A DNA stretch of 32,000 bases from an uncultured Sulfuricella sp. (GCA_964351305.1 CAYGNO010000001.1:5332-37331), one strand, 5' to 3'. Shown: positions 7,193-25,818, counted from the first letter of the stretch. Made by a program: numbers and translations. The notes: generated from the letters alone by a model not told the origin.

Positions 7193-8401
7193 CTATTTGT
7201 TGTCCTCATCCACGGCCATTTTCAGCATTTCAAAAATACCAGGGATGGCTGTGGTCACCCGGTTCCAGTTCGGGATGAGCGGCGTGGTCATCGGATTTTC
7301 CATGAACACCCGGGTTGCCATGGCGATGGCTTTGGTAAATGCCTCCACCGCCATTGCCTCTTCGTGCCGGTCAAACCTGAGGCCGTTGATTGCTGCATCC
7401 GCTTCGTATTTCATGATCGTATCCTCGGCCTGCCGCAGGTAGGATACGAGCAAGGATTTGAATAAACCGTCCGAAAACACCACCCCTTCCGAGGCTAAGG
7501 TCCTGAAGATGGATTTGCAGATATCCACCGTCATTTTCATCAACCCCTTGTTTGCATCATCGGCAGAAAGCGCCTGGTGTTTGTGTTCGTAGTTCGCCGC
7601 GATATCCACCTGGCAAACCCGGCGATGCGAATAGTTGCGGTGCACTTCGGCCAGGGAGCCCACCTCCAGCCCCCAGTCCCACGGGATCCGGTTCGTCCGG
7701 GCCAGATCGGTAATCATGCAGATCTCCCCGGAGAGGGGGTAGCGGAAGCTGTCGAGGAAAGCGAGAAAATCATGCGGCCCGATGAGTTGCTGGAGGGATC
7801 TGGCCAGCGGCGTCACCAATAGGCGGGTAACGCGGCCGTTCAATTTGCCGGATACCCGGCTGTAGTACCCTTTGCAAAACACATAGTCCAGGTTGGGATT
7901 GACTACGGGGTAGCACAACCGCGCCAGCAGTTCGCGGCTGTAAGTAACGATATCGCAATCGTGCAGGGCAATGACGTCGGACCGGCCCCGCGCCAGCACA
8001 TATCCGTAAGCAAGCCATGCCGAGCGCCCCTTGCCGCGCTCGCCCACATTGAATCCGTTGCGGGCGAATGTTTCATAGATTTCGCTGATCCTTTTGCCGT
8101 CATTGTGAATGATCTTGACCTCCGTCGAGATCGGCGCCATGAACTCCTGTACCCGCCGGAAATCTTTCTCCGAGCCCTTGTCCAGAACCAGTACGATTTC
8201 GTTCAGATACTTGACCTTGGCAAGTTCCTGGACGATTCCCGGCATGGCCGGTCCTTCGAATTCCGAATAAAGGGCCGGCAATACCAAAGCCACAGGCCTG
8301 GTTTTCGAAAAGCCGTACAATTCGGATTCCAGACGCTCAAGCGAAGGTTTGCCGAGCTGATGGAGGGTCGTAATGATTCCTGACTGGTAAAAATCGGACA
8401 C
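7193..8401 (-). CDS. gpgS: Glucosyl-3-phosphoglycerate synthase-type glycosyltransferase (GT81 family; GpgS/MpgS class, ~400-aa form)
   Basis: GTG start at 8401 with a GGAGGA SD 6 nt upstream. MSDFYQSGIITTLHQLG... N-terminus, then VALVLPALYSEF, GKGRSAWLAYGY, the DxD-like HDCDI motif, GRVTRLLVTPLARSL, YPLSGEICM and WGLEVGSLAEV. These follow the order of GT81 GpgS motifs as I recall them from the mycobacterial and Persephonella enzymes. Donor and acceptor specificity are not provable from sequence. Confidence 0.75.
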   Translation of the reverse strand: MSDFYQSGIITTLHQLGKPSLERLESELYGFSKTRPVALVLPALYSEFEGPAMPGIVQELAKVKYLNEIVLVLDKGSEKDFRRVQEFMAPISTEVKIIHNDGKRISEIYETFARNGFNVGERGKGRSAWLAYGYVLARGRSDVIALHDCDIVTYSRELLARLCYPVVNPNLDYVFCKGYYSRVSGKLNGRVTRLLVTPLARSLQQLIGPHDFLAFLDSFRYPLSGEICMITDLARTNRIPWDWGLEVGSLAEVHRNYSHRRVCQVDIAANYEHKHQALSADDANKGLMKMTVDICKSIFRTLASEGVVFSDGLFKSLLVSYLRQAEDTIMKYEADAAINGLRFDRHEEAMAVEAFTKAIAMATRVFMENPMTTPLIPNWNRVTTAIPGIFEMLKMAVDEDNK

Positions 8402-8415
8402 GGCTGATCCTCCGG

Positions 8416-9114
8416 TTAGATATGTTCGATCTCGTCCTTGGTTTCCGCCTTTTCCGCAGGTTCCCTTTCTATCATCCGCCTCGCCGCGTCAATGCCGCCC
8501 ACGCCGAAAGAAATCGCGAGCGCTGTCACGATGCCGCCGAAGATGATCGTAAAGGCGGCGAGCACGATGCTGGGCGCAATCTGTAGCTGCTCCATGGCCA
8601 TGGCCAGAATCAATACCATCAACAAAGTGCGTACGGCATCGGCCAGGAGTTTGGCGTAGTGATAACCACTGTTTACCGCGGCAATCAATACCCCCTGGCT
8701 GATGAATCCAGTAAGCACGTAGCCGATAATCAGGATCATCGCAGCGGAAAAAACACGTGGCACATAGCCGAAGAACTGCTCGACCAGACTGTCGATCGTC
8801 GGGATATTGAGGGCGCTCAGGCCGATCATCAGGGTGACGACGATCAGCAACCAGAAAACGATAGCGCCGAGGGTGGCGGATGGCTTGTCCCACAGGTCGC
8901 CCTTGCGCATCAGAGTGGTAAAGCCCATCCGGTCGGACCAGCTATCGAAGTTGATGGCTGTCAGGGATTTTATGAGTATGACCCTGACGATCCGGGCCAG
9001 AACGATGCCCAGCACCATGATCACAAGCATGGCCAGAAGGTTGGGCAAAAAAACCTTGAACTTGAGAAATACCTCTTGCAAGGGTTCGAGTATCAGATTC
9101 AGAAATTCCATCAT
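8416..9114 (-). CDS. Polytopic membrane protein built from MscS-associated 'conserved TM helix' type repeats, without an MscS channel domain
   Basis: ATG at 9114 with an AAGGAG SD that overlaps the stop of the upstream GT gene. It contains repeated blocks of the pattern (F/V)(L/V)P-x-(L/V)-x-(A/S)A-x-(I/V)-x-(I/V)-x-G-x-(V/I)-x-(A/T): FLPNLLAMLVIMVLGIVLARIVRV and YVPRVFSAAMILIIGYVLTGFISQ. Three more hydrophobic helices follow, then an acidic C-tail. Family call is by eye. Confidence 0.75.
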   Translation of the reverse strand: MMEFLNLILEPLQEVFLKFKVFLPNLLAMLVIMVLGIVLARIVRVILIKSLTAINFDSWSDRMGFTTLMRKGDLWDKPSATLGAIVFWLLIVVTLMIGLSALNIPTIDSLVEQFFGYVPRVFSAAMILIIGYVLTGFISQGVLIAAVNSGYHYAKLLADAVRTLLMVLILAMAMEQLQIAPSIVLAAFTIIFGGIVTALAISFGVGGIDAARRMIEREPAEKAETKDEIEHI

Positions 9115-9125
9115 GATTTATCTCC

Positions 9126-10391
9126 TTAAGATTGTTTCCAGCTGGTTACGAGGTAATCCTTGTTGTTTTCAAATTCCATGCAAAGTTTTTCGATTTCGGC
9201 TTCCGCTTCAGCCCCTTCCATATCCTTCGCAGCCAGGATGAAGGATGCGGTTTTTCCCAGATAAAGCGGGGTCAGGGACTTTATCAGGTGCTCTGCCGGC
9301 AGTTTCTTCTGGTGGAAAGCGATGGCGTAATCATAGATGACCCGTGTCCACAACCCGATGGGAAAGCAGAACTCGTTGTCGGCCAAGGCGCCCAGCCGTT
9401 CCACTTCCCTGAAATCCCCGGCGCCGAGGATATTGAGCCAAATCTCGCGCAGGTTTTTCAGGCCTTCCCGGAACAGGTTCAACATCCTGGCGGTATTGAC
9501 GTTGACATGTTCGAGCCCGACGGTGTATTCGAAGCCGAAAGTCGGTACCGGCTCGGAGCCGCGTATGGGTGCCCAGGTATTCGCGTAGCTCTCCATCAGG
9601 TCGAAGCTGGCGCTCACCACCTGATAGAGCATGCTGCTCAGGTCGGCGCCGGGGTCCTTGGCGTCGTGGATCTTGGCGCCGAGAAAGGACTGGGCGACCT
9701 TGAAGCCGTTCGCCATCGCCGTCGTGGTCATCCAGATGTCGATACCGAAGCGCGCGACATCCGATTCCCACACGTCCTTGGTCAGGTAGAACTGCGCCAG
9801 CCGGCCGGAAAAACCGAAATCCCCGCCTATCGGCTGCCGCACCCGCTTGCCATAAAGCGCACGGGTAAGGGGGTAGACGATGCTGTTGGTGATGGTCCCG
9901 TCGAACTTGTGCCGGTGATAGAGCGGGGTCACGTAGTCAAAGCCGCCGATCAATACCGGCTTCACCAGCAGCTCGATCCACTCGGGCGTGATGCTCCTGA
10001 GATCGGAATCGACCACCACGCAGGCCTTTGCATCCAGCGTCCGGGCAATTTCGAAAATGCTACGAAAGGCGCTCCCCTTGCCGGGAATGCCCGAATAAGG
10101 GAAGGCGATCTTGGAGATCGGCTCCACCCGGTGATGCAGGAGAATGGCGCTGAAGTCCTCGACGGATGCGTTCTGCACTACGTCCGTGGTACCGTCGCTG
10201 GAGCCGCCGTCGGAATTCACGATCACCGCCTTGTGGGAGGGGAAGTACTTGGCCAGGCCCGCCTGCACCGCGCGCACGACGTGGCCGATGGTTCGTGCAT
10301 TATTGAAACTCGGGATGCCGACTATGATGTCGGCAGCCCCGACCTTCATGATCTGGTCATGCACCTCTGTTCTGAAGGTAATGTCATTCAT
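9126..10391 (-). CDS. GT-A fold glycosyltransferase of unassigned specificity (GT2 / mannosylglycerate-synthase-like layout)
   Basis: The ATG at 10391 overlaps the stop of the upstream gene (ATGA). Motifs present: IIVGIPSFNNARTIGHVV...VNSDGGSSDGT, GIPGKGSAFRS, the DxD motif VVVDSDL, QPIGGDFGFS and FGIDIWMTT. The order GKG...DxD...QPxGG(D/E)...(W/F)GID resembles glyceryl-glycoside synthases (MGS/GpgS type) as I remember them. Confidence 0.8.
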   Translation of the reverse strand: MNDITFRTEVHDQIMKVGAADIIVGIPSFNNARTIGHVVRAVQAGLAKYFPSHKAVIVNSDGGSSDGTTDVVQNASVEDFSAILLHHRVEPISKIAFPYSGIPGKGSAFRSIFEIARTLDAKACVVVDSDLRSITPEWIELLVKPVLIGGFDYVTPLYHRHKFDGTITNSIVYPLTRALYGKRVRQPIGGDFGFSGRLAQFYLTKDVWESDVARFGIDIWMTTTAMANGFKVAQSFLGAKIHDAKDPGADLSSMLYQVVSASFDLMESYANTWAPIRGSEPVPTFGFEYTVGLEHVNVNTARMLNLFREGLKNLREIWLNILGAGDFREVERLGALADNEFCFPIGLWTRVIYDYAIAFHQKKLPAEHLIKSLTPLYLGKTASFILAAKDMEGAEAEAEIEKLCMEFENNKDYLVTSWKQS

Positions 10392-12592
10392 CGTATGGAT
10401 AGCCCCTCTGTTTTTTCGTTACTGTTCACGGTCGCGCAGTTCGGCAGCGGCCCCTTTTCCAGCAGGATGATCTGGAGGTCCATGACGTTCGTTCCCGTCG
10501 GCCCGGTCATGAAATGGCTGCGCTCCCCTGACAAGGCATCGAGTTGTTGAAAGAATCCATAGGAGTTGTTGTCGTCAAGGTAGGCGTCAGGCCCTATTCC
10601 AAGCCGGCGCGCCCGTCCGGTCGTATTGCCGTCGACCAGCGCGCCGGCGGCATCCGTCGGCCCGTCGCCGCCGTCCGTGCCGGCGGAAAGCAGGGTCACC
10701 CCGGATTGCCGGGCTATCTCCAGGGCAAAGGCCAGGGCAAGCTCCTGGTTTCTGCCGCCTTTTCCCGTTCCCCTGACGGTGACCGTGGTTTCGCCGCCGA
10801 ACAGCAGGCAGCGCCGTTCGCCCGCTTCCAAACCGGCTTGAGTCGTGCCTGCGGTCCGCGCCAGGAAGCGTGCGGCGTCGCGCGCTTCACCCTGAAGTTC
10901 GGCGGTGACGATATCCGCGGCAAACCCGAGTTGCCGGGACTTTTCCTGCGCCGCCGCCAGGGCTTGACCAATCCCGGCGACAATCACGTTCCGGGTTCCT
11001 GACAGGCAGGGTTCGCCGGCTTTTACCGTTTCCGGCTCCAGTCCGGCGATACCCCGTTGCAGATAATCCATGACACGCCTGGGGATTCTTTCCTTCAGCC
11101 CGTATTTCTCGATCACGGACCAGGCATAGTCAAAGCTTGATTCGTCCGGCGCGGTCGGCCCGGAGGCGATGACGTCGAGCCGGTCACCGATCACGTCGGA
11201 AAGAATCATCGTCACCATCTGCGCCGGGTAGGCGGCCTGCGCGAGCCGTCCGCCCTTGACGGCTGAAAGATGCTTGCGCACCGCGTTCAGCTCGCCGATG
11301 GTCGCGCCCGCTTTCAGCAGCAAAGCGGTCACCTCCTGCTTGTCTTGCAGCGTCACCCCTTCGACAGGCGCGACCAGCAGCGCTGACGCGCCGCCAGAGA
11401 GCAGGCAGATCACCAGCGTCCTCTCGTCCGCGACCCGCATCATTTCCAGTATGCGCTGCGCGCCCTCCATCCCGGCCTTATTGGGGACAGGGTGAGACGC
11501 CTCTATCTGCTCAACCATAGCCAGTGTTGCCGTGTGGCCTTCTTTCACGACAATCAGCCCGGCGGAAATCCGTTCGCCGAGCAACGCTTCTATGGCCAAT
11601 GCCATGCGCGCCGTGGCCTTCCCCGCACCGACCACAACGATGCGGCTAAAGTCTTCAAGCGGGTACGCGGCACCGGCAACAGTCAGGCATTCGTTCTCAA
11701 GCTTTGCGGCGTTGAGCACGGCCTGGTAGGGATCGACTGCGGCAAGAGCGGCGCTAAAAATATGGGTAAGAATTGATGACGGCATTTCTTCTCCGGCGTT
11801 CCCGGCTGATAGCAATTGCAGCACCGCTTCGTTCCAGCCCAGTGGGCCGGCGCTTTGCGTCTTCATCATGCCGGCTATGGCGATGCGGGAATCGAAACTT
11901 CCGTCCTCGTGCCGGATCAGCACCGGGCGGTCCACCGCCTGGAGCAATGGCAGGTCGTTCAGACTGTCTCCCAGCCCGATGCTGTGGATTTCGCCATACT
12001 CGCGCTCGTAGAGCGCTTTCAGGGTTTTCACGGCAAGGCCTTTGTCGTGTTTGCCCATAATGTGGAAAACCCGCCCCTGGGTCCAGTGCAGGCCGGCGTC
12101 CTCTATGGCTTGCAGAAAACGTGCGTCAGGCGCGCCATCGAAGACGAAAGGTTCGTCGAAATCACGCTGCTTGGCCAGGATAGCGTCATCGCAAGAGAGG
12201 CCCGTCAACCCGGCGACCTCCTCCGCCGTCATGTCTGCAAAGCCGCGTACGCTTGCCCCCAGCCGTTCCCGGAGAGCAACGAAGTGGCGTCTGATCTCCG
12301 CATAGGGCGTGCCGAGCGTGATGCGCTGATAGCCATCCACTGAATCAACCGGCGCGGAGAAGTAGCCCTGTGGAATGAAGATTCCGCCACCGTTTTCGGT
12401 TATGAAAGGGTGGAAGTTGTGCATGCGCTGGCGACAAGCTTCGATTTCAGAGCGCGTTTTGCTGGAACAGAGAACCAGCGGCACACCGTGCGCCTGAATC
12501 AGGCTTAAGGCCGGTAGCGCGTCATTGAAGGAATACCTCACCGCATCGAGCAAGGTTCCGTCCAGATCGCTAAAAAGGATCGTTTTCCGCAT
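10388..12592 (-). CDS. Fusion protein: N-terminal HAD-IIB mannosyl-/glucosyl-3-phosphoglycerate phosphatase-family domain plus C-terminal MOFRL-type glycerate kinase (TtuD/GckA-like)
   Basis: The track ORF starts at TTG 12634; the ATG at 12592 (MRKTILFSDLDGTLLD...) is preferred. N-terminal domain: DLDGT nucleophile motif, LVLCSSKTRSE and GLGDSLNDLPLL, giving a YedP/MPGP-like layout. From about residue 285 onward: DPYQAVLNA, VVVGAGKATARMA, ASHPVPN, LLSGGASALL, LSDVIGD, FGGETTV, GKGGRNQE and GTDGGDGPTDAAGA, the hallmark order of DUF4147+MOFRL glycerate 2-kinases. It is a single uninterrupted frame. Confidence 0.85.
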   Translation of the reverse strand: MRKTILFSDLDGTLLDAVRYSFNDALPALSLIQAHGVPLVLCSSKTRSEIEACRQRMHNFHPFITENGGGIFIPQGYFSAPVDSVDGYQRITLGTPYAEIRRHFVALRERLGASVRGFADMTAEEVAGLTGLSCDDAILAKQRDFDEPFVFDGAPDARFLQAIEDAGLHWTQGRVFHIMGKHDKGLAVKTLKALYEREYGEIHSIGLGDSLNDLPLLQAVDRPVLIRHEDGSFDSRIAIAGMMKTQSAGPLGWNEAVLQLLSAGNAGEEMPSSILTHIFSAALAAVDPYQAVLNAAKLENECLTVAGAAYPLEDFSRIVVVGAGKATARMALAIEALLGERISAGLIVVKEGHTATLAMVEQIEASHPVPNKAGMEGAQRILEMMRVADERTLVICLLSGGASALLVAPVEGVTLQDKQEVTALLLKAGATIGELNAVRKHLSAVKGGRLAQAAYPAQMVTMILSDVIGDRLDVIASGPTAPDESSFDYAWSVIEKYGLKERIPRRVMDYLQRGIAGLEPETVKAGEPCLSGTRNVIVAGIGQALAAAQEKSRQLGFAADIVTAELQGEARDAARFLARTAGTTQAGLEAGERRCLLFGGETTVTVRGTGKGGRNQELALAFALEIARQSGVTLLSAGTDGGDGPTDAAGALVDGNTTGRARRLGIGPDAYLDDNNSYGFFQQLDALSGERSHFMTGPTGTNVMDLQIILLEKGPLPNCATVNSNEKTEGLSIR

Positions 12593-12658
12593 CTGTCCCT
12601 TTCCGAGGTTGCTGTGGTTTTCGTGATTTCTCAATAGTCGATCTGTAATGCCGCATCA

Positions 12659-13522
12659 TTACAGCGACGTCAGATAGGCGGCAAACTCCTCGCGCAAATC
12701 CTCATGTTTCAGGCCAAAAGCCACCTGTGCCTTGAGGTATCCCAGCTTTGACCCGCAATCGTAACGGGTGCCGCTGAAACGATAGGCCAGCAGTTTCTCT
12801 TCATGCAGCAGCGCGGCGATGCCGTCCGTCAACTGGATTTCCCCCCCCGCGCCCGCCTGCGCTCGCGCCAAATGATAGAAGATGCGCGGTGTCAGGATAT
12901 AGCGGCCGACCACCGCCAAGGTGGAAGGCGCGTCTTCCGGGCGGGGCTTTTCAACGAGACCGTTCACCAGCTCCACGCCCGGTTCCAGATGGGTTGCGCT
13001 GACGATGCCGTACTGACCCGTTTGTTCGCGGGGCACGTCCTGCACGCCCAGCACGGAACACAGGTGGCGCTCGTACACTTCCACCATCTGCTTGATCGCA
13101 GGGGGCTCGCCATCGATCAGGTCATCAGCGAGAATCACCGCGAAAGGCTCGTCCTGCACGACCGGCTGCGCGCACAGCACGGCATGGCCCAGTCCGAGCG
13201 CCTCGGACTGGCGGATGTAGATGCAGTTCACGTGTTTCGGGACGACATCCTGCACCGCGCGCAGCAGTTCCTGCTTGCCGCGTGCGGCAAGTTCCGCTTC
13301 CACCTCGTAAGCGGTGTCGAAATGATCTTCTATGGCGCGCTTGTTGCGCCCGGTGATGAACACCATATCGGTGATTCCGGCCGCCACGGCTTCTTCCACC
13401 GCATACTGGATCAGCGGTTTGTCCACCACCGGCATCATCTCCTTGGGGCTGGCCTTGGTGGCGGGCAGAAAACGGCTGCCCAGACCGGCCACCGGAAATA
13501 CGGCTTTCGTGATTCTTTTCAT
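12659..13522 (-). CDS. galU: UTP--glucose-1-phosphate uridylyltransferase
   Basis: The track start 13531 is GTG. The ATG at 13522 has a GGAG SD 8 nt upstream. [45 protein letters not shown]... is a textbook GalU N-terminus, and VEKP is also present. Confidence 0.9.
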
Positions 13523-13662
13523 CGTTGGCACTCCATTAAGACTCCCTAAATTTTTTCCACCGCATTCCAGCCTATTTCATCATAGCCTCGCGTACGCACA
13601 AAAATCATCTACGCTTGCAGATTCTGCGCGGCATCTTGCCGTTATGGATCAAGAAACGCGCC

Positions 13663-14199
13663 TCATTTTTCCACTTCCATGGAGGAATGGTTTGGCGACA
13701 GATCGGATAAAATCAGGTCTGAAAGCGGCTGCATGGCGGCTTCCTTGTCCCTGACCCCGATCTCATCGAGCACCTGAGCGAGGCTCCTGTTAAGGTTGTC
13801 CAGCACCTCGTCCGGCAGTCGATTGAGGGCTTCCGGAAGTACGCCCCGCACTGGCTGCGGAGCACTTGCGACAATTCGCGTCCCTTCATCGGTGAGGAAC
13901 AAGCGGACTATCCGCTGGTCAGGGTCATTGCGCTCCCTTCGAATCAGGTTGCGTTTCGCCAACTTGTCGAGCAGGTTGCTTGCCGTCGAAAGATGCAGTG
14001 ACATGGCCTTGGCGAGATCGGAAACCCGCTGCCCGGGATGTCCCGCCACCTCTCTCAGCACCCACAACTGGGCTCCGCTCAGCCCGCATTGATCCTCGAT
14101 CCGGCGGAAGTGCTGCTGCGCCGAACTGACGATTTGACGGAATTTTTTCAGCGCTTCCAACGATTTCTCGTGCAAACCGGATTCTTGGGTGGCCTTCAT
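13663..14199 (-). CDS. MarR-family transcriptional regulator
   Basis: Track ORF 13663..14397 trimmed to the ATG at 14199 (MKATQESGLHEKSLEALKKFRQIVSSAQQHFRRIEDQCGLSGAQLWVLREVAGHPGQRVSDLAKAMSLHLSTASNLLDKLAKRNLIRRERNDPDQRIVRLFLT...). Classic winged-helix MarR core. The upstream part of the track ORF is translated AT-rich promoter DNA. Confidence 0.85.
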   Translation of the reverse strand: MKATQESGLHEKSLEALKKFRQIVSSAQQHFRRIEDQCGLSGAQLWVLREVAGHPGQRVSDLAKAMSLHLSTASNLLDKLAKRNLIRRERNDPDQRIVRLFLTDEGTRIVASAPQPVRGVLPEALNRLPDEVLDNLNRSLAQVLDEIGVRDKEAAMQPLSDLILSDLSPNHSSMEVEK

Positions 14200-14237
14200 T
14201 TCGAGTCGATTCGTTTTCCAAAGGGGATTATAAATAT

Positions 14238-14270
14238 ATTTGTACAAAACCACTTTTACAATGCCTAATT
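14238..14270 (-). promoter_or_regulatory. Promoter/operator block upstream of marR: TTTGTACAAA palindrome plus ATGCCTAATT box
   Basis: 24 of 33 positions are identical, with identical spacing, to 23147..23179 upstream of the sucrose operon. Read on the minus strand it gives TAGGCA-N17-TACAAA and TTGTAA-N17-TATATT, both sigma70-like arrangements. The palindrome core is TTGTACAA (14240..14247). Confidence 0.5.
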
Positions 14271-14436
14271 TTTGATTATTCTTCAAGCCTTTTTCAACAG
14301 GCATTATCGTGTCGTCCGAATTATAAAATGATGAATCAGTCACTTGCTGCGGCGGAGAGAAAGCCCTGACTTCGAGAAAAAGCATCCTCCCTGGCATCTT
14401 ATGCGGATCAGCGCCGAATTGATTGGCGCCCCGCTG

Positions 14437-14468
14437 AATTAGGCTAGAATACCCATTACTGAAAAAAT
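14437..14468 (+). promoter_or_regulatory. Third AATTAGGC box / promoter-like region upstream of the channel gene pair
   Basis: AATTAGGC lies at 14437..14444 on the + strand, the coding strand of the downstream genes. It overlaps a possible TTGGCG-N16-TAGAAT promoter, with the -10 element at 14445..14450. The same 8-mer lies on the coding strand at the marR and frk sites. Confidence 0.3.
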
Positions 14469-14483
14469 TACAGGAGGATGAAA

Positions 14484-14867
14484 ATGAATCTTGAGAAAGT
14501 AATCTTTGCGTTTTTTATCGTCCTTGCGCTGACCCTGAACTTCGGTTTTTTTCTCGGCAGCATCGACAACCCGGTCCACCACAGCGTTTATGAGCTGTTC
14601 GCCGCCATCGTCATCAGCCTGATCGCCACCATCCTGAAATTCGGCGATCGCACCCATCTCGGCGCGGTGCTGCTCGCCACCAGCCTGGTGGCCGACTTGC
14701 AGCTGATCGCTGCGGCGATGGTGTGGGCGATGGCGGAACATGTCACGCATTCCGGGCTGACTCCTCACATCATGGCGATCATCGTTTCCCTTTCCGGCGG
14801 CGCGCTGCTCGCCAATATCACCTCGGTGGTGCTGCTGGTAGCCGAAACCATCGCGGTGCGCCGCTGA
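14484..14867 (+). CDS. Small 4-TM membrane protein of unknown function
   Basis: AGGAGG at 14472..14477 is followed by ATGs at 14478 and 14484; the second has normal SD spacing. MNLEKVIFAFFIVLALTLNFGFFLG... contains four hydrophobic helices. It ends 20 nt before the channel gene. Confidence 0.7.
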   Translation: MNLEKVIFAFFIVLALTLNFGFFLGSIDNPVHHSVYELFAAIVISLIATILKFGDRTHLGAVLLATSLVADLQLIAAAMVWAMAEHVTHSGLTPHIMAIIVSLSGGALLANITSVVLLVAETIAVRR

Positions 14868-14887
14868 CCGTCCGGCGAGGGCCTGTC

Positions 14888-16618
14888 ATGCACAATATCG
14901 TGTATGTCCTGCTGCGGCGCATCCATGTGCCGCTGATCGTGCTGGTGTGCGTGTATTCCATTTCCGTTCTGGGTTTTGTCCTGATCCCCGGCGTGGATGG
15001 GCAGGGCAAGCCGTGGGACATGGGTTTCTTCCATGCCGTCTATTTCGTCAGCTTCCTGGGCACCACCATCGGGTTAGGCGAGATCCCCTATCCGTTCACC
15101 GATGCGCAGCGGCTCTGGGCCACGATCAGTATCTATGGCACCGTGTTCGCCTGGCTGTATGGCATCGGCGCCGCCCTGTCGCTGTTGCAGGACCCGGCCT
15201 TTCAGTCGACCCTGCGGGCAAACGCCTTCCGCCGGTCGGTCAGGCTGATCACCGAACCGTTCTATCTGGTGTGCGGCTACGGCGACACCGGCAGCACGCT
15301 GGTGCGTGCGCTGTCCGATGCGGGTTACCGCTCGGTGGTGATCGAGGTCGAGCAGAGCCGCATCGTTGCGCTGGAACTGGAGGATCTGGGGATGCCCGTA
15401 CCCGGGCTGTGCGCCAGCGCCGCCGTGCCCAAAGTCCTGGTGATGGCGGGTCTGGACCGCCCTAACTGTATTGGTGTAATCGCGCTGACCAATGTGGATG
15501 ACGCTAACCTCAACGTCGCGATTACCGCCAAACTGCTGCGTCCCCGCGTTGTCACTATCGCCCGGGCAGAGTCGCGTTCGGTCGAGGCCAATATGCTTTC
15601 TTTCGGCACCGACCAGGTATTCAACCCCTTCGATACCTTTGCCGGGCGTCTCGCCCTGGCGCTGCATTCGCCCGGCATGTTCCTGCTGTATGAGTGGATG
15701 ACTGCCGTGCCGCACGAGACCTTGCGCGAGCCCCTGTTCCCGCCGCACGGGCGCTGGATACTGTGCGGATACGGCCGCTTCGGCAAGGCAGTGTATGAGC
15801 GTCTGGTTGCGGAGGGTGTCCAGGTCACCGTTATCGAGGCCACACCTGAAACTACCGACGCACCGCCCGGCACCATCTCCGGCTCGGGCACCGAAGCCGC
15901 TACGCAGCTCGAAGCCGGCATCAAGGACGCGGTGGGCATCGTGGCCGGCACCGACAACGATGCGAACAACCTGTCCATCATCATGACTGCGCGCGAACTC
16001 AACCCCGGCCTCTTTATGGTCGCACGCCAGAACCAGCACCAGAACAACATCATTTTCAGGGCGGCCCAGCTCGATCTCACCATGAAGCGCGGCAGCGTGA
16101 TCGCCAACAAGATTTTTGCCCTGACCACCACGCCGCTTCTGGCAGAATTTTTACAAGTGGCCCGGCTCAACTCCAACGAATGGGCCAACCAGCTGGTGAG
16201 CCGCATCGGCGGCATATCCGGCGACGAGGTGCCGCAGACCTGGGCGCTGGAAATTACGCCTGCAGCCTCGCCGGCCCTGTATGCCGGGATTGCGAGGGGC
16301 AGGCGGGCCCGCATCGGCGATCTTTGCCGCGATCCGCGCAATCGCGATGAATGCCTGCCTTGCATTGCGCTATTGATCAAACGCGGAGACGCCGAGATTC
16401 TGTTGCCGGCGGACGATGAAATGCTGCGGCGAGGAGACCACATCCTGCTATGTGGCCGCGACGGCGCAGGTCAACAAATGGAATGGATCGCGAAGAACCA
16501 CAACGTGTTCAATTATCTCTATTCCGGCGAAGAGCGCGCCAGCGGCAGTGTCTGGCGCTGGCTCACGCGCGAAAAAGAGCATCCGGCCCACCCGGAAGGC
16601 CCGCCGCCAGAATCCTGA
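14888..16618 (+). CDS. 2-TM pore-loop cation channel with two RCK/TrkA-N domains; non-canonical TTIGLGE filter
   Basis: Track ORF 14723..16618 trimmed to the ATG at 14888 (MHNIVYVLLRRIHVPLIVLVCVYSISVLGFVLI...). The pore helix and filter read FFHAVYFVSFLGTTIGLGE (filter codons 15062..15082). Rossmann motifs are LVCGYGDTGSTLV and ILCGYGRFGKAVY. Confidence 0.85.
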   Translation: MHNIVYVLLRRIHVPLIVLVCVYSISVLGFVLIPGVDGQGKPWDMGFFHAVYFVSFLGTTIGLGEIPYPFTDAQRLWATISIYGTVFAWLYGIGAALSLLQDPAFQSTLRANAFRRSVRLITEPFYLVCGYGDTGSTLVRALSDAGYRSVVIEVEQSRIVALELEDLGMPVPGLCASAAVPKVLVMAGLDRPNCIGVIALTNVDDANLNVAITAKLLRPRVVTIARAESRSVEANMLSFGTDQVFNPFDTFAGRLALALHSPGMFLLYEWMTAVPHETLREPLFPPHGRWILCGYGRFGKAVYERLVAEGVQVTVIEATPETTDAPPGTISGSGTEAATQLEAGIKDAVGIVAGTDNDANNLSIIMTARELNPGLFMVARQNQHQNNIIFRAAQLDLTMKRGSVIANKIFALTTTPLLAEFLQVARLNSNEWANQLVSRIGGISGDEVPQTWALEITPAASPALYAGIARGRRARIGDLCRDPRNRDECLPCIALLIKRGDAEILLPADDEMLRRGDHILLCGRDGAGQQMEWIAKNHNVFNYLYSGEERASGSVWRWLTREKEHPAHPEGPPPES

Positions 16619-16630
16619 GTGGCGTAGGCC

Positions 16631-17542
16631 TTATGCCGTTCCGCTGCGCTGAACCACATGCAGGGGCGGCGCCGAGCCGTCCTTGCCCTGACCGGCGTAA
16701 ACGGTCAGGTGGGGATAGGGGATCTCGATTCCGTGGCGGTCGAAAGCCTGCTTCAGCCGGCGCAGATATTCCCGGCGCACCCCCCACTGTTCCAGCGGCA
16801 ACACCTTGAAGCGGCAGCGCAGGATCACGGCCGAATCGTCCCACCGGTCCACCCCGGCCATTTCCATCGGCTCCAGAATCTTGCCGCCGAAGGCCCCGTC
16901 CTCGCGCATCCCGGCGCCGACCTGGCGCATCACCTCCATCACCTCGTCCGTGTCTTCGCGGTAGGCTACCCCGACGTCGATCACCGCATAGGCGAACCCC
17001 CGGCTCATGTTGGTGACGGTGGTGATGATGCCGTTAGGGATGAAATGGACGTTGCCGTCGTAGTCGCGCATCTTGATGTAGCGCAGGGTGACTTCTTCCA
17101 CCAGTCCGCCCTTGCCGCCCGCCTCCACCACGTCGCCCTGCCTGACCTGGTTTTCCAGCAACAGGAAGAAGCCGTTGAAATAGTCCTTGATCAGGCTCTG
17201 CGCCCCGAACCCCACCGCGATGCCCAGCACCCCGGCAGTGGCCAGGATAGGCGCGATGGAAACGCCCAGTTCGCTCAGTACCACCATGCCGGAAACCACG
17301 TAGATAACAACAGAGGCGATGTAGCGGAATACCCGGCTCAGGGTTTCGATGCGCTTCAGATCCTCCAGGTTGTTATCCGCCTGGCTCCGCAGGTAGGCCT
17401 TTAATAGCTTGATCGCTTTGTTGGACAAGCGCAGCAGCACCCAGCCCAGGGTCAGGATCAGGAGGATGTGCAGGCCGGACTGGGAGAACAGCAGCAGTTC
17501 TTTCATGTTTCCCGTAGCGAAAAAGGCAGATAGTTTGTCCAT
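16631..17542 (-). CDS. MscS-family small-conductance mechanosensitive channel
   Basis: 303 aa. TM helices are followed by GVLGIAVGFGAQSLIKDYFNGFFLLLENQVRQGDVV and a beta-domain (NVHFIPNGIITTVTNMS). The start lies 30 nt after the sucrose synthase stop, with an AGGAAAAA SD. Confidence 0.9.
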   Translation of the reverse strand: MDKLSAFFATGNMKELLLFSQSGLHILLILTLGWVLLRLSNKAIKLLKAYLRSQADNNLEDLKRIETLSRVFRYIASVVIYVVSGMVVLSELGVSIAPILATAGVLGIAVGFGAQSLIKDYFNGFFLLLENQVRQGDVVEAGGKGGLVEEVTLRYIKMRDYDGNVHFIPNGIITTVTNMSRGFAYAVIDVGVAYREDTDEVMEVMRQVGAGMREDGAFGGKILEPMEMAGVDRWDDSAVILRCRFKVLPLEQWGVRREYLRRLKQAFDRHGIEIPYPHLTVYAGQGKDGSAPPLHVVQRSGTA

Positions 17543-17572: not shown

Positions 17573-19969
17573 CTAATCCCGGCCGATCTTGCCGGCCAGC
17601 GGGCGGTACTGCAAATGGTAGAACATATCCAGATAACGCGCGGTTTCCTCACGCTCGGCGCCACTGACGAATTTCCAGAAGCCATAGATACGGGACAGGG
17701 TCATCATGCGCTCGGCGTACTGCTTCCAGGTGTAGTTGGCCGCGACGCGCGCAAGGGCGCCTTGCGACAATCGCTCCCATTCCTGCGGATCGGTCGCGCA
17801 ACGATCGAGAAAATCCGCCATCAGCTTTGTGGCAGCGGCGCCATCGTTGGGATCGATGTGAAAGCCGGAACGATTGTGCCGGATGATCTCCATCGGACCG
17901 CCATGGCAGGTGGCGAAGGTGGGCAGTCCCGAGGCCATGGCCTCGATGATGGTCAGGCCGAAGGCTTCGAACAGAGCCGGCTGCACGAAAATGCCGCGAC
18001 CGTCGGCCACGTAGCGGTACAGTTCGCCCGCCAGGTTCTTGTCCAGGCGCATGCCCAGCCAGCGCACCTGGCCGTCCAGTCCACGGGTTTCCATGATCTG
18101 GTGCATGTAGCGAATTTGTCCCTGCTCTTCGTGGTCGGCGGATAGTCCCGGGTCGATATAGCCGCCAATAACCAGAAGGTTGGCGCGCTCGCGCAGTTCC
18201 GGCGAGGCGCCGTACCAGTCCACCAGGCCGGTCAGGTTTTTGATGTGATCCATCCGTGCCATGGTGAAAATCAGCGGCTTGCTCTTGTCCTCCAGCACGC
18301 CGCGCGCCGAGGGTCCCGGTTCCGCACCGTAGATCATGGCTTCGAGCTCAGGGATCAGGCTGGTGAGGCGGCGTCCGTTATCGCTGTAAGGGAAATAAAC
18401 ATCCGCATCCGCGCCGGGAGAAACGATATTGAACTTCGGGTCGAACAGGTCGATGCCGTTGACCACCCGGTACAGCCCCGGCATGGTGAAAGCATGATAG
18501 CTGCCGTACTGGCCCACCGTTTCATCGGTACCCGCGATCTCCTGATAGGTGCTGGCGATGATGAAATCCGCCGTGTTCATGGCGATCAGATCGGCGGTGT
18601 ACTGGCAGGAAAAATGGTACTGCCCGTCGTTTTCCTTCCAGTACAGATCGGAATGCAGGTATTTGGTCTTTTCCAGGGCATGGGCGATGTTGCACTGGGT
18701 CACTCCCAGCCGCTGGCTGAGCAGGGAGGCCACCAGGTTGCCGTCGGAATAGTTGCCGATGATCAGGTCCGGGCGTCCGCCCAGTTCCGCCAGGGCCTCG
18801 CGTTCCACGTCTTGGGCAAAATCTTCCAGATAAGGCCAGATTTCGAAGCGCGAAATCCAGTGCCGCACGATTTCGCCGTTCTGCTTGTGGAAAGGCACCC
18901 GCAGTATCCAGGTATTGTCGCAGCCGCTGACTTTTTCCAGCCGCTGGTTGCAGGTGGTCTGCCCGGCATCCGGAATCAGGCGGGTGACGATCGTGATTTT
19001 TGGTTCCACCGGCACGCCCTGGCGCGCCAGACGCTCGCGCATCTCCCGCTCCAGTGCCCGGACCTGGTCGAGGATATAGACCACCTGCCCGCCGGTGTCC
19101 GGCAGCCCCAGCACGTTGTCCTGGCCGAAGTAGCCGTGTGGCGAGAGAATCAGCAGGCGCGAGATCATCGGGATGCGCGCCAGGAAAGCCTCCAGGGCTG
19201 TCGGCGAGGGCGCCTCCAGGATGTCCGAGAGCAGGCCCATGGTTTCGGCCACCCGACCGGCATTGTCGCCCCAGCCGGGCGCGAAACCCAACTTGCCCAG
19301 TTTCTCGGACAAAGTTGTCCACGGAGCTTCCTCCTCGATTTTTTCCAGTTCACCGAGTGCGCGTCGCAGCGCTGCGCGCAGGGCAGCCGTGTCGCGGAAG
19401 GTTTTGTCGATCATCAACTGCTGGCCGTCGATGGCATGGACGCTGAGAAAATTCAGGAGTTTTTCCGCTCCTTCCTGCGACCGGTTGAACATGTCGCTGG
19501 ACAACTTCCGGTTGAGGAAGAGCATGCCCTGGCCGATGGAGCGCGGCTCCTTGAGCCGCGGGAACCCGCGCCCGAAAGGCCCGAAGTCGATCTCCAGCAC
19601 GGAAGCCTCCGAATGATCGACCTGCATTTCCTTGAAGCGCAGGAATTCCGGGGTGCCGATCTGTTCGGGAACCACCGAATCCGCGTGGATGCGCAGATAG
19701 ATCCATTGCGCCGCACCTGGCCGTACTGCGAAGTAGGCCCAGGGTGCCTGGAAAACTCCTTCCTGGAGGCGTTCCACGAAATGGCCGAGATGGGTTGCCG
19801 CCAGATCGGCCTGGCCGTGCTCGCGGCACAGCGTTGCAAACTCCTCGCGCAGGTCGGATTGCAGCAGGAACGGGCGGTTTTTCGCGAAATACCGGCGCAG
19901 CAGCGCGTAGACCGGGTCCCGATTTTCTTGCGCGTAGGCGCCTAACTCTTCAATCATTCTTTCCGTCAT
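17573..19969 (-). CDS. susA: Sucrose synthase
   Basis: Track ORF (TTG at 20065) trimmed to the ATG at 19969 ([44 protein letters not shown]...), with an AAGGAGG SD 6 nt upstream. It contains [20 protein letters not shown] and a GT4 C-terminal half ([15 protein letters not shown]). The N-terminus resembles the Nitrosomonas europaea enzyme as I remember it. Confidence 0.9.
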
Positions 19970-22154
19970 GCTGAACCTCCTTTGATTTCTCTGCCGTTTT
20001 TTCCCCATCGAAGCCGTAGTGATCGAGGCCTTCCAGGATGCCGCTGGCACAGTGGCCACGGGCAAAATAGATCTGCTCGAGGCCGCGCAACGGCTCGAGC
20101 TCCGGGCTGTGGTTGCCGACCACTACGCCGAGGGTGTCGCCAACCAGCATTTCCTCGTCGTTGCCGGAGTCGCCGGCCACCAGGAAGCTGCGCAACGGGA
20201 TTCCCCACTTGTAGGCCAGGTAGCGGATGGCGTGCCCCTTGGAGGCGCGCACCGGCAGTACGTCGAGAAACTCCTGGTGCGAGTAGATGAGCCTGGCATG
20301 CAAGTTTTTTTCGTGCAGCAGGCGGTAGAGGCTTTTGAGCGGAGGCATCCGGTCCGGCGTCACGTTGTAGCTCAGCTTGAACTCGCGCTGGTTTTCCCGT
20401 GGCTGCAGTTCGAGTCCGGGTATTTCCGCCAAGGCCTCCGCCAAGGCATCTCGGCGCCACAAGTAGCGTATATGGTTGGCCCAACCGGCATCCGGGCGCA
20501 GTTTCGGACCATAGTTGATTTCGCTGCCCACCGAGGTGATCAGCACGTTGGGCAACGGTACGCGCCAACTCCTGAGCACCTTGACCGCACTTTCCAGCCT
20601 GCGGCCGGTGGCGATGCCGAAGGCAACCGTCCCGGCATGGCTGCGCAGCCAGGCGACCAGTTCCTTCAGGCCTTCCTTGTGGCCGATCAGCGTGTTGTCG
20701 ATGTCGCTGACCAGTATCCGCCTCACCAGGGGCATGGTGGATTTGTCGGTGTGGAGGACGGATGCAAGCTGACGGCGCATGCGCTTGCGGTCGCGGCGCA
20801 GCAGGTGGCGCACCGCCTTCATGTATTTCGCGACGTGGGCATCCCAACTGTAATGCCTCTTTACACCCGCCACGCCGTTTTTTGCCCATAGCCGCCATTG
20901 TTTTTTGTCGGCCAGCGCAGCATTCAGTGCGGCGGCAATGGCAGACGGGTCGAGGGCGTTTACCAGCAAGCCGTTGCGGCAGTTGCCCACGATGTCGCGC
21001 GGGCCGCCGTCCTCGGTGGCGACGAAGGGCAGTCCGCTGGCAGCGGCCTCGATCAGGGTCAGACCGAAAGGTTCGGTCAGCGCCGGATTGACGAACACGC
21101 CGCGGCGGCGCGCCGCCATACGGTAAAGCTCCGGCACATCGTCGGCGGAGTGATGCTTCGGGAACGCCACCTTGCCCCACAGGTCATAGCGGTCGATGTC
21201 GAGCAGCAGATCGCCCAGGACTTTCTGCTGGGCTTCGTCCAGGTCGCGGATATCATCCCGGTTGCCCGCCACGATCACCAGATTGGCCGCCTCCTGCAGT
21301 TGCGGATCCTCCCCATACGCCTTGACCAAACCTTTCAGATTCTTGCGCGTATCGGGCCGGCAAATGGTCAGGATCATGGGTTTTTCCGGCCTGGACAGGA
21401 AACGCTCCACACTGTCCCCGATGGTTGGGTCGATCTTTTTCCGTCCCGGGGGAGAAAAACGCGAGGTATCGGTGCCCGGTGGAATGACGATGCTGCGCCT
21501 CGGATCGTGGTTCTGGTACATGCCGTACTGATCGACGACCTCCTGGCGGGTGCTGGTGACCACCAGTGAAGCGTGGGCCAGCACCTTTTCCTCTGCGGCG
21601 ATGCGTCGCGCCAGATGAAACTGGCGTTCGATGGCCTGTTCCTTGCGCCCGCTCGCCAACAGCCGCGCACGCTTCGGTCGCCCGAGCGAATGGCCGGTGT
21701 GAATCTGGGGAATGCCCAGCAGCAGGGAAAGCTGCTGCCCCACGTAGCCGGCATCGGCGTAGTGGGTGTGGATCAGGTCTGGCAGGCGGCCCTGCTGGCG
21801 CAACAGGTGCAGGCAGCGGTCCACCATCTGGTCCAGATGCGGCCACAGCACTTCCTTGCGCAAATAGCGGCGGGGGCCAAAAGGAAGACGCAGGATGCGC
21901 GCGCCGCTGCCGATCGACTCCTCGACCTGGGCATAGTCCGGCGACACCGCGGGGTCCTCGACCAGACGCGTGAGCAGGTCCACCTGCACGACCTCGCGGT
22001 GGCGCGCCAGGGCTCGCGCCAGCTCGACCACATAGGTGGTTTGACCGCCGGTGTCGGCATCGCGTCCCAGTTCCATATCCTTGCCCCGGATCAGACCGTG
22101 CACACTGATCATCAGGATGTACAGGGGATTTTCACTCTTGATCGATGTCGTCAT
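19950..22154 (-). CDS. sps: Sucrose-phosphate synthase with C-terminal SPP-like HAD domain
   Basis: Track ORF 19950..22517 trimmed to the ATG at 22154, which forms an ATGA overlap with the frk stop. [49 protein letters not shown]..., then the GT4 core ([28 protein letters not shown]). The C-terminal HAD domain carries DIDNT (20691..20705) and [10 protein letters not shown]. Its 3' end overlaps the susA start by 20 nt. Confidence 0.9.
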
Positions 22155-23074
22155 GAAATTTCCCACTCCTTCAGAAAGGGCTGATAGAAACCCGGGGCAT
22201 CCGGAATGGCGCCGCGGATTCCGCACAGGGCCGCGGCAAAGCGATTGGCCCGCGACAAGGTGAGGCTGGCCGGCCACCCTCGGAGTGTTCCGAGGATGAA
22301 AACGGCGGCGAAGCCATCCCCTGCGCCCACCGTGTCGACAATGCCGCCAGTCGGCGCAATGCCTTCGGTTCGCGTCTGTGTGCCATCCGCAGTCAATTGC
22401 CAGGCGCCTTGCGCGCCGCAGGTGACCAGCACCCGTTCCAGGGAAAACTGCTTGATCAGCGCCGCCGCCTGCGCGATTGCGCTGTCGCCCGTCAACTGCA
22501 GTTGACGGGCGACGCATGCCAGTTCCTCGTGGTTCATTTTTACGAGATCCGCGCGAAGCAGCGAGCGTTTGAGTGTTTGCGCGTCATACCAGGGCTCGCG
22601 CAGGTTGATGTCCAGAATGCGGGGCGCCCCGATGCTCCGAAACAGGCTGTTCAGGGCTCGCCGCGAAATCTTGTTGCGCTGCGCCAGGGTTCCGAAATAA
22701 ATCAGCTCCGGCTGAGTTGACAGGGCGACCATGCGCGCCACCCCGGCATGGATGAAATCGTAGGCCTGGTCAGGGGAAATCTCGAAACGGTGTCCGCCCT
22801 GCTCCATGTGTACAACCACCTGGCCGGTCGAGTGGGCAGGGTCGCACTGCACACCCAGGGTGTCCATTCCAAACCGGGCCATGCTGGCGAGCAGTTCCTC
22901 CCGCAGTGCATCATTGCCGGTGCGCGTGATCAGCACCGGATGCAGGCCGAACGCCTGCAGGTGGCGGGCCACGTTAAAGGGCGCGCCTCCCAGTACGGAG
23001 CGGTCAGGAAACCTGTCCGCCAGGACTTCGCCGAACAGCGCTATGGTTCCTGTTCGCGGGCTCGGTTTGGTCAA
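22151..23074 (-). CDS. PfkB-family sugar kinase, probable fructokinase
   Basis: ALFGEVLADRF...GGAPFNVARHL, with a C-terminal DTVGAGDGFAAVFI motif. The only start consistent with the N-terminal domain is TTG at 23074, which has a weak SD. See the finding on an in-frame ATC at 23122 behind a strong GGGAGGA. Confidence 0.8.
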   Translation of the reverse strand: MTKPSPRTGTIALFGEVLADRFPDRSVLGGAPFNVARHLQAFGLHPVLITRTGNDALREELLASMARFGMDTLGVQCDPAHSTGQVVVHMEQGGHRFEISPDQAYDFIHAGVARMVALSTQPELIYFGTLAQRNKISRRALNSLFRSIGAPRILDINLREPWYDAQTLKRSLLRADLVKMNHEELACVARQLQLTGDSAIAQAAALIKQFSLERVLVTCGAQGAWQLTADGTQTRTEGIAPTGGIVDTVGAGDGFAAVFILGTLRGWPASLTLSRANRFAAALCGIRGAIPDAPGFYQPFLKEWEIS

Positions 23075-23144
23075 CAGCCTGGGTAGGGTGTTTTCCTGAT
23101 TTGCCGTCTTAGGGTATGGGATGCGCTTATCCTCCCGACAAAAC

Positions 23145-23179
23145 AGTATTGTACAATACTATTTTCCAGATGCCTAATT
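23145..23179 (-). promoter_or_regulatory. Perfect 16-bp palindrome AGTATTGTACAATACT plus ATGCCTAATT box upstream of frk-sps-susA
   Basis: The palindrome is at 23145..23160 and the box at 23170..23179. Read on the minus strand: TAGGCA-N17-TACAAT, with the palindrome covering the -10 element. It matches the marR upstream block at 24/33 positions. Confidence 0.55.
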
Positions 23180-25170: not shown

Positions 25171-25818
25171 TCACGCCCACAAGCTCAAAGGCGGGTCGGC
25201 GATGACCGCGCGCAGGATGTCACCGCGCGAGATAAAGCCCACCATTTCCCCCGCCTCGTTCACCACCGGCACGCCGGTGAAGCCGGTATCCAGCAGCACG
25301 CGGGCGACGAGGCGGATATCGGCCGCCGGGTCGGCGCTCACCACGGGGCTGGCCATCACCTCGGCCACGGTGCGGGCCAGGACGTCGCGCACCGCGCCCC
25401 CTTCCACGTTGAGCGCGGTGAGCAGGTCGCGCTCGGAGACGATGCCCACCAGACGATGCGCGCTATCCCGCACCGGGGCCTGGCGGATGCGCCCTGTCAC
25501 GAGGGCGCGCCAGGCGTCCTCGATCCGCGACTCCGCCCGCACCGCCGTCACTTCCCGGCTCATGATCTGGTAGGCATGGTAGAGCGGGCCGCGTTCGGTC
25601 TCTTGATGCAACATCCCCGGATAGGCACGGGCGGCGGCTTCATAATTTGCACCGTCTTGATCCGTGCGCCGGGCGGTCCGGGATATCTCCGCGCCCGGTC
25701 CCTCGCCCTCGTGGGCGAGGGACCGGGCATGGCGGGCGCGCATTACCCCCGGCACCTGAATCAACTGCTCCAGAGGTCCGTGGAAAGTCTGGCCGGTGAC
25801 GCCATAGATGGAGAACAT
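25171..25818 (-). CDS. CBS-domain protein with ~90-aa low-complexity N-terminal extension
   Basis: The C-terminal half has two CBS repeats (QAPVRDSAHRLVGIVSERDLLTAL and GVPVVNEAGEMVGFISRGDILRAV). ATG at 25818. Confidence 0.75.
   Translation of the reverse strand: MFSIYGVTGQTFHGPLEQLIQVPGVMRARHARSLAHEGEGPGAEISRTARRTDQDGANYEAAARAYPGMLHQETERGPLYHAYQIMSREVTAVRAESRIEDAWRALVTGRIRQAPVRDSAHRLVGIVSERDLLTALNVEGGAVRDVLARTVAEVMASPVVSADPAADIRLVARVLLDTGFTGVPVVNEAGEMVGFISRGDILRAVIADPPLSLWA

Follow-up and report, generated by a model that had tools for sequence, protein, structure and literature searches.

The MarR-family regulator encoded in the 32,000-nucleotide stretch of DNA analysed here (the window) probably binds a palindrome shared by two promoters, through which it would control together the operons for sucrose and for a glucosylglycerate-type solute. 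We place the probability of this reading at about 0.7. Co-control of the two operons by the neighbouring MarR protein had been put forward in an initial annotation of the window, and it is supported by enrichment of the palindromic box near marR genes, by the gene neighbourhoods in which the box occurs, by its persistence in relatives, and by frk loci that have no MarR gene nearby. The palindrome itself is a real and non-random feature.

Palindromes at the frk and marR promoters

Two related blocks of sequence lie, as first described, upstream of the minus-strand operons marR-galU-…-GpgS and frk-SPS-SuS-MscS (Table 1). Both solute operons carry their own mechanosensitive channel gene. The interval between marR and galU contains no terminator-like or minus-strand promoter-like site, and for this reason the glucosylglycerate-type genes are considered to be probably co-transcribed with marR. 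The product of these genes could be a solute more complex than glucosylglycerate, such as mannosylglucosylglycerate. The MarR protein (13663-14199) matches MarR proteins in the PDB with E values of 2e-10 or weaker. Divergent from marR are genes for a DUF6394 protein and a TrkA_N-domain K+ channel-like protein (14484-16618, plus strand), which are the most conserved marR neighbours in Sulfuricellaceae (L001, L005, L009, L010). The region downstream of marR is variable in this family and holds a glucosylglycerate-type operon, a ClC channel gene or a DUF294 nucleotidyltransferase gene. Control of the divergent DUF6394-TrkA operon by the same box at marR is unlikely, as the box is ~240 bp from the gene start and a candidate promoter is present at 14423-14450.

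Table 1. Coordinates of the promoter elements, putative operator sites and genes in the window.
Feature	Position	Strand	Basis or remark
Core of the putative frk-promoter operator, perfect 16-bp palindrome AGTATTGTACAATACT	23145-23160	.	Direct reading; TTGYACAATA core invariant in six related promoters
Full inverted repeat at frk, 26 bp, halves AAAACAGTATTGT and ACAATACTATTTT	23140-23165	.	12/13 pairs
Downstream half box TTGTCGGG	23134-23141	-	Starts 15 nt past the start of the core TTGTACAA on the coding strand; kept as TTGTCAGG in skB26 and L009
Predicted -10 hexamer TACAAT of the frk-SPS-SuS-MscS promoter	23148-23153	-	Inside the palindrome; sigma-70 consensus scan
Box A AATTAGGCAT (coding strand) at the frk promoter	23170-23179	-	With predicted -35 TAGGCA, 23171-23176
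Box A AATTAGGCAT (coding strand) at the marR promoter	14261-14270	-	With TAGGCA at 14262-14267
Box D, 10-bp palindrome TTTGTACAAA	14239-14248	.	Core TTGTACAA
Box U TTGTAAAA (coding strand), degenerate second box	14254-14261	-	Also candidate -35 (TTGTAA)
marR, 178-aa MarR-family winged-helix regulator, proposed box binder	13663-14199	-	PF01047 E = 6.4e-14; PF12802 E = 2.3e-13
Glucosylglycerate-type operon downstream of marR	7193-13531	-	
galU	12659-13531	-	
MPGP-family phosphatase fused to glycerate kinase	10388-12634	-	
GT2 glycosyltransferase	9126-10391	-	Weak MGS/GpgS similarity
msc-like membrane protein	8416-9114	-	
GpgS-like glycosyltransferase	7193-8401	-	Below NCBIfam cutoff
frk, PfkB sugar kinase	22151-23074	-	First gene behind the palindrome
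Sucrose-phosphate synthase/phosphatase (SPS-SPP)	19950-22154	-	TIGR02472 E = 1.5e-221, TIGR02471; ATG at 22154 overlaps frk stop
Sucrose synthase (SuS)	17573-19969	-	TIGR02470, 1195 bits, above cutoff; start chosen at MTERMIEE
MscS-type mechanosensitive channel	16631-17542	-	Last gene of the sucrose operon

Upstream of frk, a perfect 16-bp palindrome had been described. It is present, but it is the central part of a longer inverted repeat that extends over 26 bp with a single mismatched pair. The outer arms of the longer repeat (..AGT and ACT..) recur beside distant marR orthologues (L030, L037, L057, L059, L061). On the downstream side the layout is TTGTACAA-TACTGTT-TTGTCGGG, and a TTGYRCAA-N6/7-TTGY layout is also seen in distant loci; to count the half box as part of the operator is speculative. 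At marR, the repeat takes the form of a 10-bp palindrome together with a degenerate upstream box. Both inverted repeats are centred on TTGTACAA, lie 13 nt downstream of the AATTAGGCAT box (box A), and overlap sigma-70-like hexamers. The other observations on which the original proposal was built were reproduced: ATGCCTAATT was read directly at 23170-23179, the block at 14238-14270 (ATTTGTACAAAACCACTTTTACAATGCCTAATT) is identical to 23147-23179 at 24 of 33 positions when counted by eye, and the start-to-start spacing from TTGTACAA to ATGCCTAATT is 21 nt in both blocks.

The composite motif TTGTACAA-N13-ATGCCTAATT has two matches in the 32-kb window when up to three mismatches are allowed, both of them exact (14240-14270 and 23149-23179), and none in 100 dinucleotide-preserving shuffles. 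TTGTACAA alone occurs twice against 0.13 expected, and 26-bp palindromes with at most one mismatch occur three times against 0.03 expected. The 10-mer ATGCCTAATT taken alone is not significant (2 in the window with at most one mismatch versus 0.99 expected, a count reached by 27 of 100 shuffles), and a perfect 16-bp palindrome taken alone is not rare (4 in the window versus 0.94 expected, with at least one in 61% of shuffles). Hence, the significance lies in the combination of the elements and in the true extent of the palindrome. Further sites in the window are limited to weak one-mismatch boxes at 14254 (box U), 23220 and 4008. The G+C content of the window is ~62%, and both sites form AT-rich islands.

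Two other inverted repeats were observed in the window. A perfect 30-bp palindrome at 22485-22514, with halves GTCGCCCGTCAACTG and CAGTTGACGGGCGAC, is far beyond chance and lies within the frk coding sequence, where its translation is VARQLQLTGD; the palindrome is absent from the corresponding position in the skB26 orthologue. A G+C-rich inverted repeat, CCCGGTCCCTCGCCC-tcgt-GGGCGAGGGACCGGG, is found at 25698-25723 in the upstream part of an open reading frame (25171-25818) for a CBS-domain protein, and it may be an intergenic hairpin if the real start of the reading frame is further downstream.

Both blocks had been read on the coding strand as promoters of the form TAGGCA-N17-TACAA(T/A) with the palindrome over the -10 region. 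For frk the consensus scan agrees with this, as TAGGCA-17-TACAAT (23176 to 23148, minus strand) is the only sigma-70-like site between 23000 and 23400. For marR, however, the -10 hexamer is uncertain and may be TACAAA or TATATT: the promoter scan prefers TTGTAA-17-TATATT, and the alternative, TAGGCA-17-TACAAA, has the geometry of the frk promoter. Under either reading of the consensus scan, the box falls in the -10 or spacer region of the marR promoter. Sigma-54, sigma-32 and extended -10 readings were rejected by eye, on the grounds that the GG and GC elements are wrongly spaced, skB26 does not conserve the GG, and TAGGCAT is unlike CCCCAT.

Box A had also been taken as part of the motif recognized by the regulator, and this assignment is not upheld. 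Across four frk promoters, the AATT of box A is invariant and GGCAT is conserved. At the marR promoter, most relatives have AATT(A/G)GGCAT as box A, skB26 has AATTCTGTAT and T08 has AATTACGTAT, and no counterpart is present in the distant loci examined. Box A is lineage-specific, and it coincides with the predicted -35 hexamer. It is most likely that AATTAGGCAT represents the shared -35 and upstream region of both promoters and lies outside the MarR site. The two blocks are best explained as paired promoter-operator modules.

The box in close relatives and distant loci

The window derives from a relative of Sulfuricella, and the MarR homologues that share 75-95% identity with its own belong to Sulfuricella and other Sulfuricellaceae. 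Among these close relatives, S. denitrificans skB26, Sulfuricella T08, L009, L010 and L020 have kept the frk-type promoter, and AATT…TTTG(T/C)ACAATA is invariant in the frk and mscS promoters of this group. The box is kept where SPS and SuS have been lost (skB26, L009) or where frk has been lost (L010); mscS alone stands directly behind the same TTGTACAAT box in L010 and L023, and in L020 the frk-type promoter is now in front of marR. Since the close relatives are highly similar and the 5' UTR is conserved as well, conservation alone cannot single out the palindrome. Exact boxes in these loci (L001-L024) are mainly at marR, frk and mscS promoters, with a few in or beside unrelated genes. The sucrose genes themselves have been lost piecemeal in this group (L001 5446-7493; L009 5687-7662; L010 6764-7675; L002 9629-9874): what remains is frk, a short SPS remnant and mscS in skB26 and L009, mscS alone in L010, and in T08 an 81-residue 5' remnant of frk fused next to marR.

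The marR promoters are more variable. Those of the window, L005, L013 and L024 have the arrangement TTGTAAAA-N6-TTGTACAA, and those of skB26 and T08 have two boxes, TTGTGCAA-N7-TTG(T/C)ACAA. Box D is retained in L005, L013, L024, skB26, T08 (as TTGCACAA) and L020, and is degenerate in L007/L017, L018, L009/L019, L022 and L010/L023, that is, in roughly half of these relatives, in which TTGTGAAA alone persists upstream. Box U is TTGTGCAA in skB26 and T08 and TTGTGAAA in L007, L018 and L010. Hence, autoregulation through box D would not be universal in this group. In relatives, MarR could start at an in-frame upstream TTG (ATG in skB26) that adds (MP)LENES… (14200-14225 compared with L005, L024 and skB26); a 5-nt deletion in the window puts this start out of frame and leaves the ATG at 14199.

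Beyond this family, one genome per species was scanned, and a relative of the MarR protein is encoded at 285 loci in Beta- and Gammaproteobacteria, of which 80 were kept; the distant set (n=66) comprises the kept loci with ~45-58% identity, minus one that is cut at a contig end. Within 350 nt upstream of marR, these loci contain 16 WTTGYRCAAW sites against 0.49 expected, and the maximum in 200 dinucleotide-preserving shuffles was 3; the sites are in only 15 of the 66 loci, and the box-bearing loci include near-duplicates (L060/L072/L073 and L068/L074). The density of WTTGYRCAAW is 0.68 per kb upstream of marR, 0.11 in other intergenic regions and 0.017 in coding sequence, and several of the other intergenic sites are just downstream of marR, before the next gene. 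The boxes in distant loci are often in tandem, 14-16 bp apart, as in L029 (TTGTACAA-ATATATT-TTGCATAA) and L060 (TTGCGCAA-ATATAA-TTGCTGCC), and L025 has three. When 34 homologues are aligned, the residues H69, S71, T72, S74 and N75 of the recognition helix (H-STASN) are invariant down to 46% identity, together with H30, G39 and Q44-L45-W46. Signature motifs of the subfamily are CG[VL]SGAQLW and H[LQ]ST[AS]SN[LM]L.

The genes beside these regulators are related to those in the window. The order marR-X-frk-SPS-SuS, where X is an unannotated 505-residue open reading frame, is found in three gammaproteobacterial MAGs (L060, L072, L073), and marR is also upstream of frk-SPS-SuS in L065 and L076. A search from frk orthologues identified marR-frk-SPS-SuS-MscS in Sulfuriferula L213, with ATAGTTTTGTGCGAATATAATTTGCACAAATG before marR. 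In L025, frk-MscS is divergent from marR with the three boxes between them, and in Thiobacillus L089 an mscS gene has its own box in addition to marR-CBS-CitMHS. A glucosylglycerate-type operon is divergent from a MarR paralogue in L036. An OtsA-like gene (Glyco_transf_20) follows marR in L033, L037, L048 and L056, with TTGCGCAATACT between both genes in L037. Other frequent neighbours of the subfamily encode ClC channels, Na+/H+ exchangers and TM_HPP proteins.

These loci bear on the least improbable of the alternatives, although an unlikely one, which is that the two blocks are copies of one promoter architecture (TAGGCA, an AT-rich upstream tract and TACAAT or TACAAA) that arose by descent or duplication with no role for MarR. 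That both boxes coincide with predicted hexamers at 17-nt spacing would be expected of such copies, AATTNGGCAT is lineage-specific, and promoter shuffling is clear in the neighbourhood (L020, T08, L010). However, copying of a promoter leaves the 26-bp inverted repeat unexplained, and the TTGYRCAA boxes at distant MarR orthologues include tandem arrangements, AGT/ACT arms, and variants of the TTGCGCAA type. As the latter are unable to serve as -10 hexamers, a reading in which the boxes are purely promoter elements fails. Moreover, an exact box is missing from the 300 nt upstream of frk in the three frk-SPS loci where no MarR gene lies within 10 kb (Nitrosomonas L214, Sulfurirhabdus L215 and Methylobacillus L216), although MarR may be encoded elsewhere in these genomes and L215 has the one-mismatch box ATGTACAA.

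It is likewise improbable that the palindrome is an operator for another factor, such as a global osmotic regulator or a nucleoid-associated one with a preference for AT-rich palindromes, and that MarR has its targets elsewhere. AT-rich islands in a genome of ~62% G+C would suit such a factor, the exact box is missing at the marR promoters of half the relatives, and a separate strongly conserved block, GAAAAAGGCTTGAGGAAT, is present upstream of marR. Against this, the motif follows the marR gene across many unrelated contexts and taxa, the hallmark of a factor that acts locally and is autoregulated, and no other regulator gene is consistently nearby. About 8 of 10 relatives conserve the block GAAAAAGGCTTGA(A/G)GAAT, which lies at 14278-14295 (minus strand) upstream of the marR promoter; it is more strongly conserved than the TTGTACAA box and might be the site of a second regulator.

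That the palindrome works in RNA, as a terminator or hairpin serving the upstream CBS-CitMHS genes or as a 5'-UTR structure, or that it is a copy of a dispersed repeat, is very improbable. The transcript of the frk site could fold into a hairpin (-11.7 kcal/mol, z = -3.3), but folding is not predicted for the marR copy (-1.9 kcal/mol, z = +0.6). The A/U-rich stem lacks a free U tail, the frk site yielded no terminator call, and Rfam gave no matches. There are two copies in 32 kb, with the boxes in related loci clustered at marR, frk and mscS promoters. A generic repeat search of the window returned only G+C-rich chance matches. A metagenome scan for AATTMGGCAT-N13-TTGYACAA gave almost only unrelated sequences among the matches listed, of which L141 alone is Sulfuricella-like; these matches are dominated by a recurrent element of gut and other metagenomes, …AAAAAATTAGGCATAAAAATTGAATACTTGTACAAGATACAGTGAATCT… (L094, L105, L108 and many others), which fits the pattern by coincidence.

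A proposed MarR switch and its relation to known regulators

We propose that dimers of the MarR protein would bind both inverted repeats and, by covering the -10 hexamer and spacer that the sites overlap, would block RNA polymerase. The position of the sites is what points to repression rather than activation. The targets would be frk-SPS-SuS-mscS and the marR transcript itself, which would probably run into galU, the phosphatase/glycerate kinase gene, GT2, msc and GpgS. A signal that releases the repressor would then result in the two solutes and the two mechanosensitive release valves being made together. By analogy with EctR and CosR, for which direct sensing of ionic strength has been proposed, the releasing signal may be osmotic or ionic, perhaps ionic strength.

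The closest parallels are MarR-type repressors of compatible-solute genes. EctR1 of Methylomicrobium alcaliphilum represses ectoine synthesis, and the signal sensed by EctR and CosR is not known (PMC5924519). Like the regulator in the window, it is encoded beside a compatible-solute biosynthesis operon, and its site is an A/T-rich pseudo-palindrome of 8-bp half-sites that overlaps the -10 region of the ect promoter (PMC5924519). EctR1 autoregulates in M. alcaliphilum (PMC5924519), as the MarR protein of the window is predicted to do. The half-sites in the window abut, whereas those of EctR1 are 2 bp apart, and the proposed targets are sucrose and glucosylglycerate-type genes and mechanosensitive channels rather than ectABC. 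CosR of Vibrio cholerae and V. parahaemolyticus represses several compatible-solute systems, namely ectoine and betaine synthesis and the BCCT and ProU transporters (bioRxiv 10.1101/845297). One MarR-type repressor over several such systems is also what is proposed here, although CosR does not autoregulate in V. parahaemolyticus and the content of the regulon differs.

The closest match found to a regulator of a characterized type is a V. aquimaris protein that was called CosR-like solely from its divergent BCCT neighbour, with 30% identity over 120 residues (65.9 bits), which is within the usual range between MarR proteins. The best PDB MarR protein scored 44 bits, NCBIfam matches were weaker too, and a search of a plasmid collection gave no annotated relative closer than this Vibrio protein. 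The recognition helices differ (SQATATTILDRL in the window MarR versus HLSTASNLLDKL), and the Vibrio intergenic region has no TTGYRCAA box. Association with ect, bet or BCCT genes, by which membership of the EctR/CosR clade was judged, was not found: the neighbours are sucrose, glucosylglycerate-type, OtsA-like, MscS, ClC, Na+/H+ exchanger and TM_HPP genes, and ect and BCCT families are absent from the 25 most frequent of 59 neighbour families in the window and orthologous loci. Two features expected of a MarR operator are present, a MarR protein encoded beside the site and a (pseudo)palindrome, typically of ~16-30 bp, in both its own and the target promoters. The classical MarR, OhrR and SlyA proteins share the winged-helix dimer, a palindromic operator over their own -35/-10 region and frequent tandem sites, but they respond to phenolics, peroxides and the like, and control efflux and detoxification genes. 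Cys38 of the window MarR is nearly invariant in the subfamily and lies just before helix 2 (QCG[VL]SGAQLW), in contrast to the sensing cysteine of OhrR, which is N-terminal. This residue could hint at redox or metal sensing, instead of or besides an osmotic signal.

In the literature searched, no account was found of how non-photosynthetic bacteria control sucrose or glucosylglycerate synthesis at the transcriptional level, no paper linked a MarR protein to proteobacterial sucrose or glucosylglycerate genes, and TTGTACAA appeared together with MarR only in Gateway attB primers. The sequence comparisons describe a plausible operator for an uncharacterized MarR subfamily, in which the logic of the switch is conventional. 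A broader idea, to which we give somewhat less than even odds, is that the subfamily is a general osmolyte master switch that uses tandem TTGYRCAA boxes to co-regulate the neutral or anionic sugar solute of each lineage (sucrose, trehalose or glucosylglycerate) with mechanosensitive and ion channels, and that might respond to ionic strength itself without an intervening ligand.

The analysis offers a candidate regulator, an operator consensus of approximately ACAGTWTTGYRCAAWACTGT, and candidate regulons in many genomes, with a possible use in engineering the production of sucrose or glucosylglycerate. As each solute operon has its own mechanosensitive channel gene under what is proposed to be the same switch, the emergency valve would be made along with the solute.
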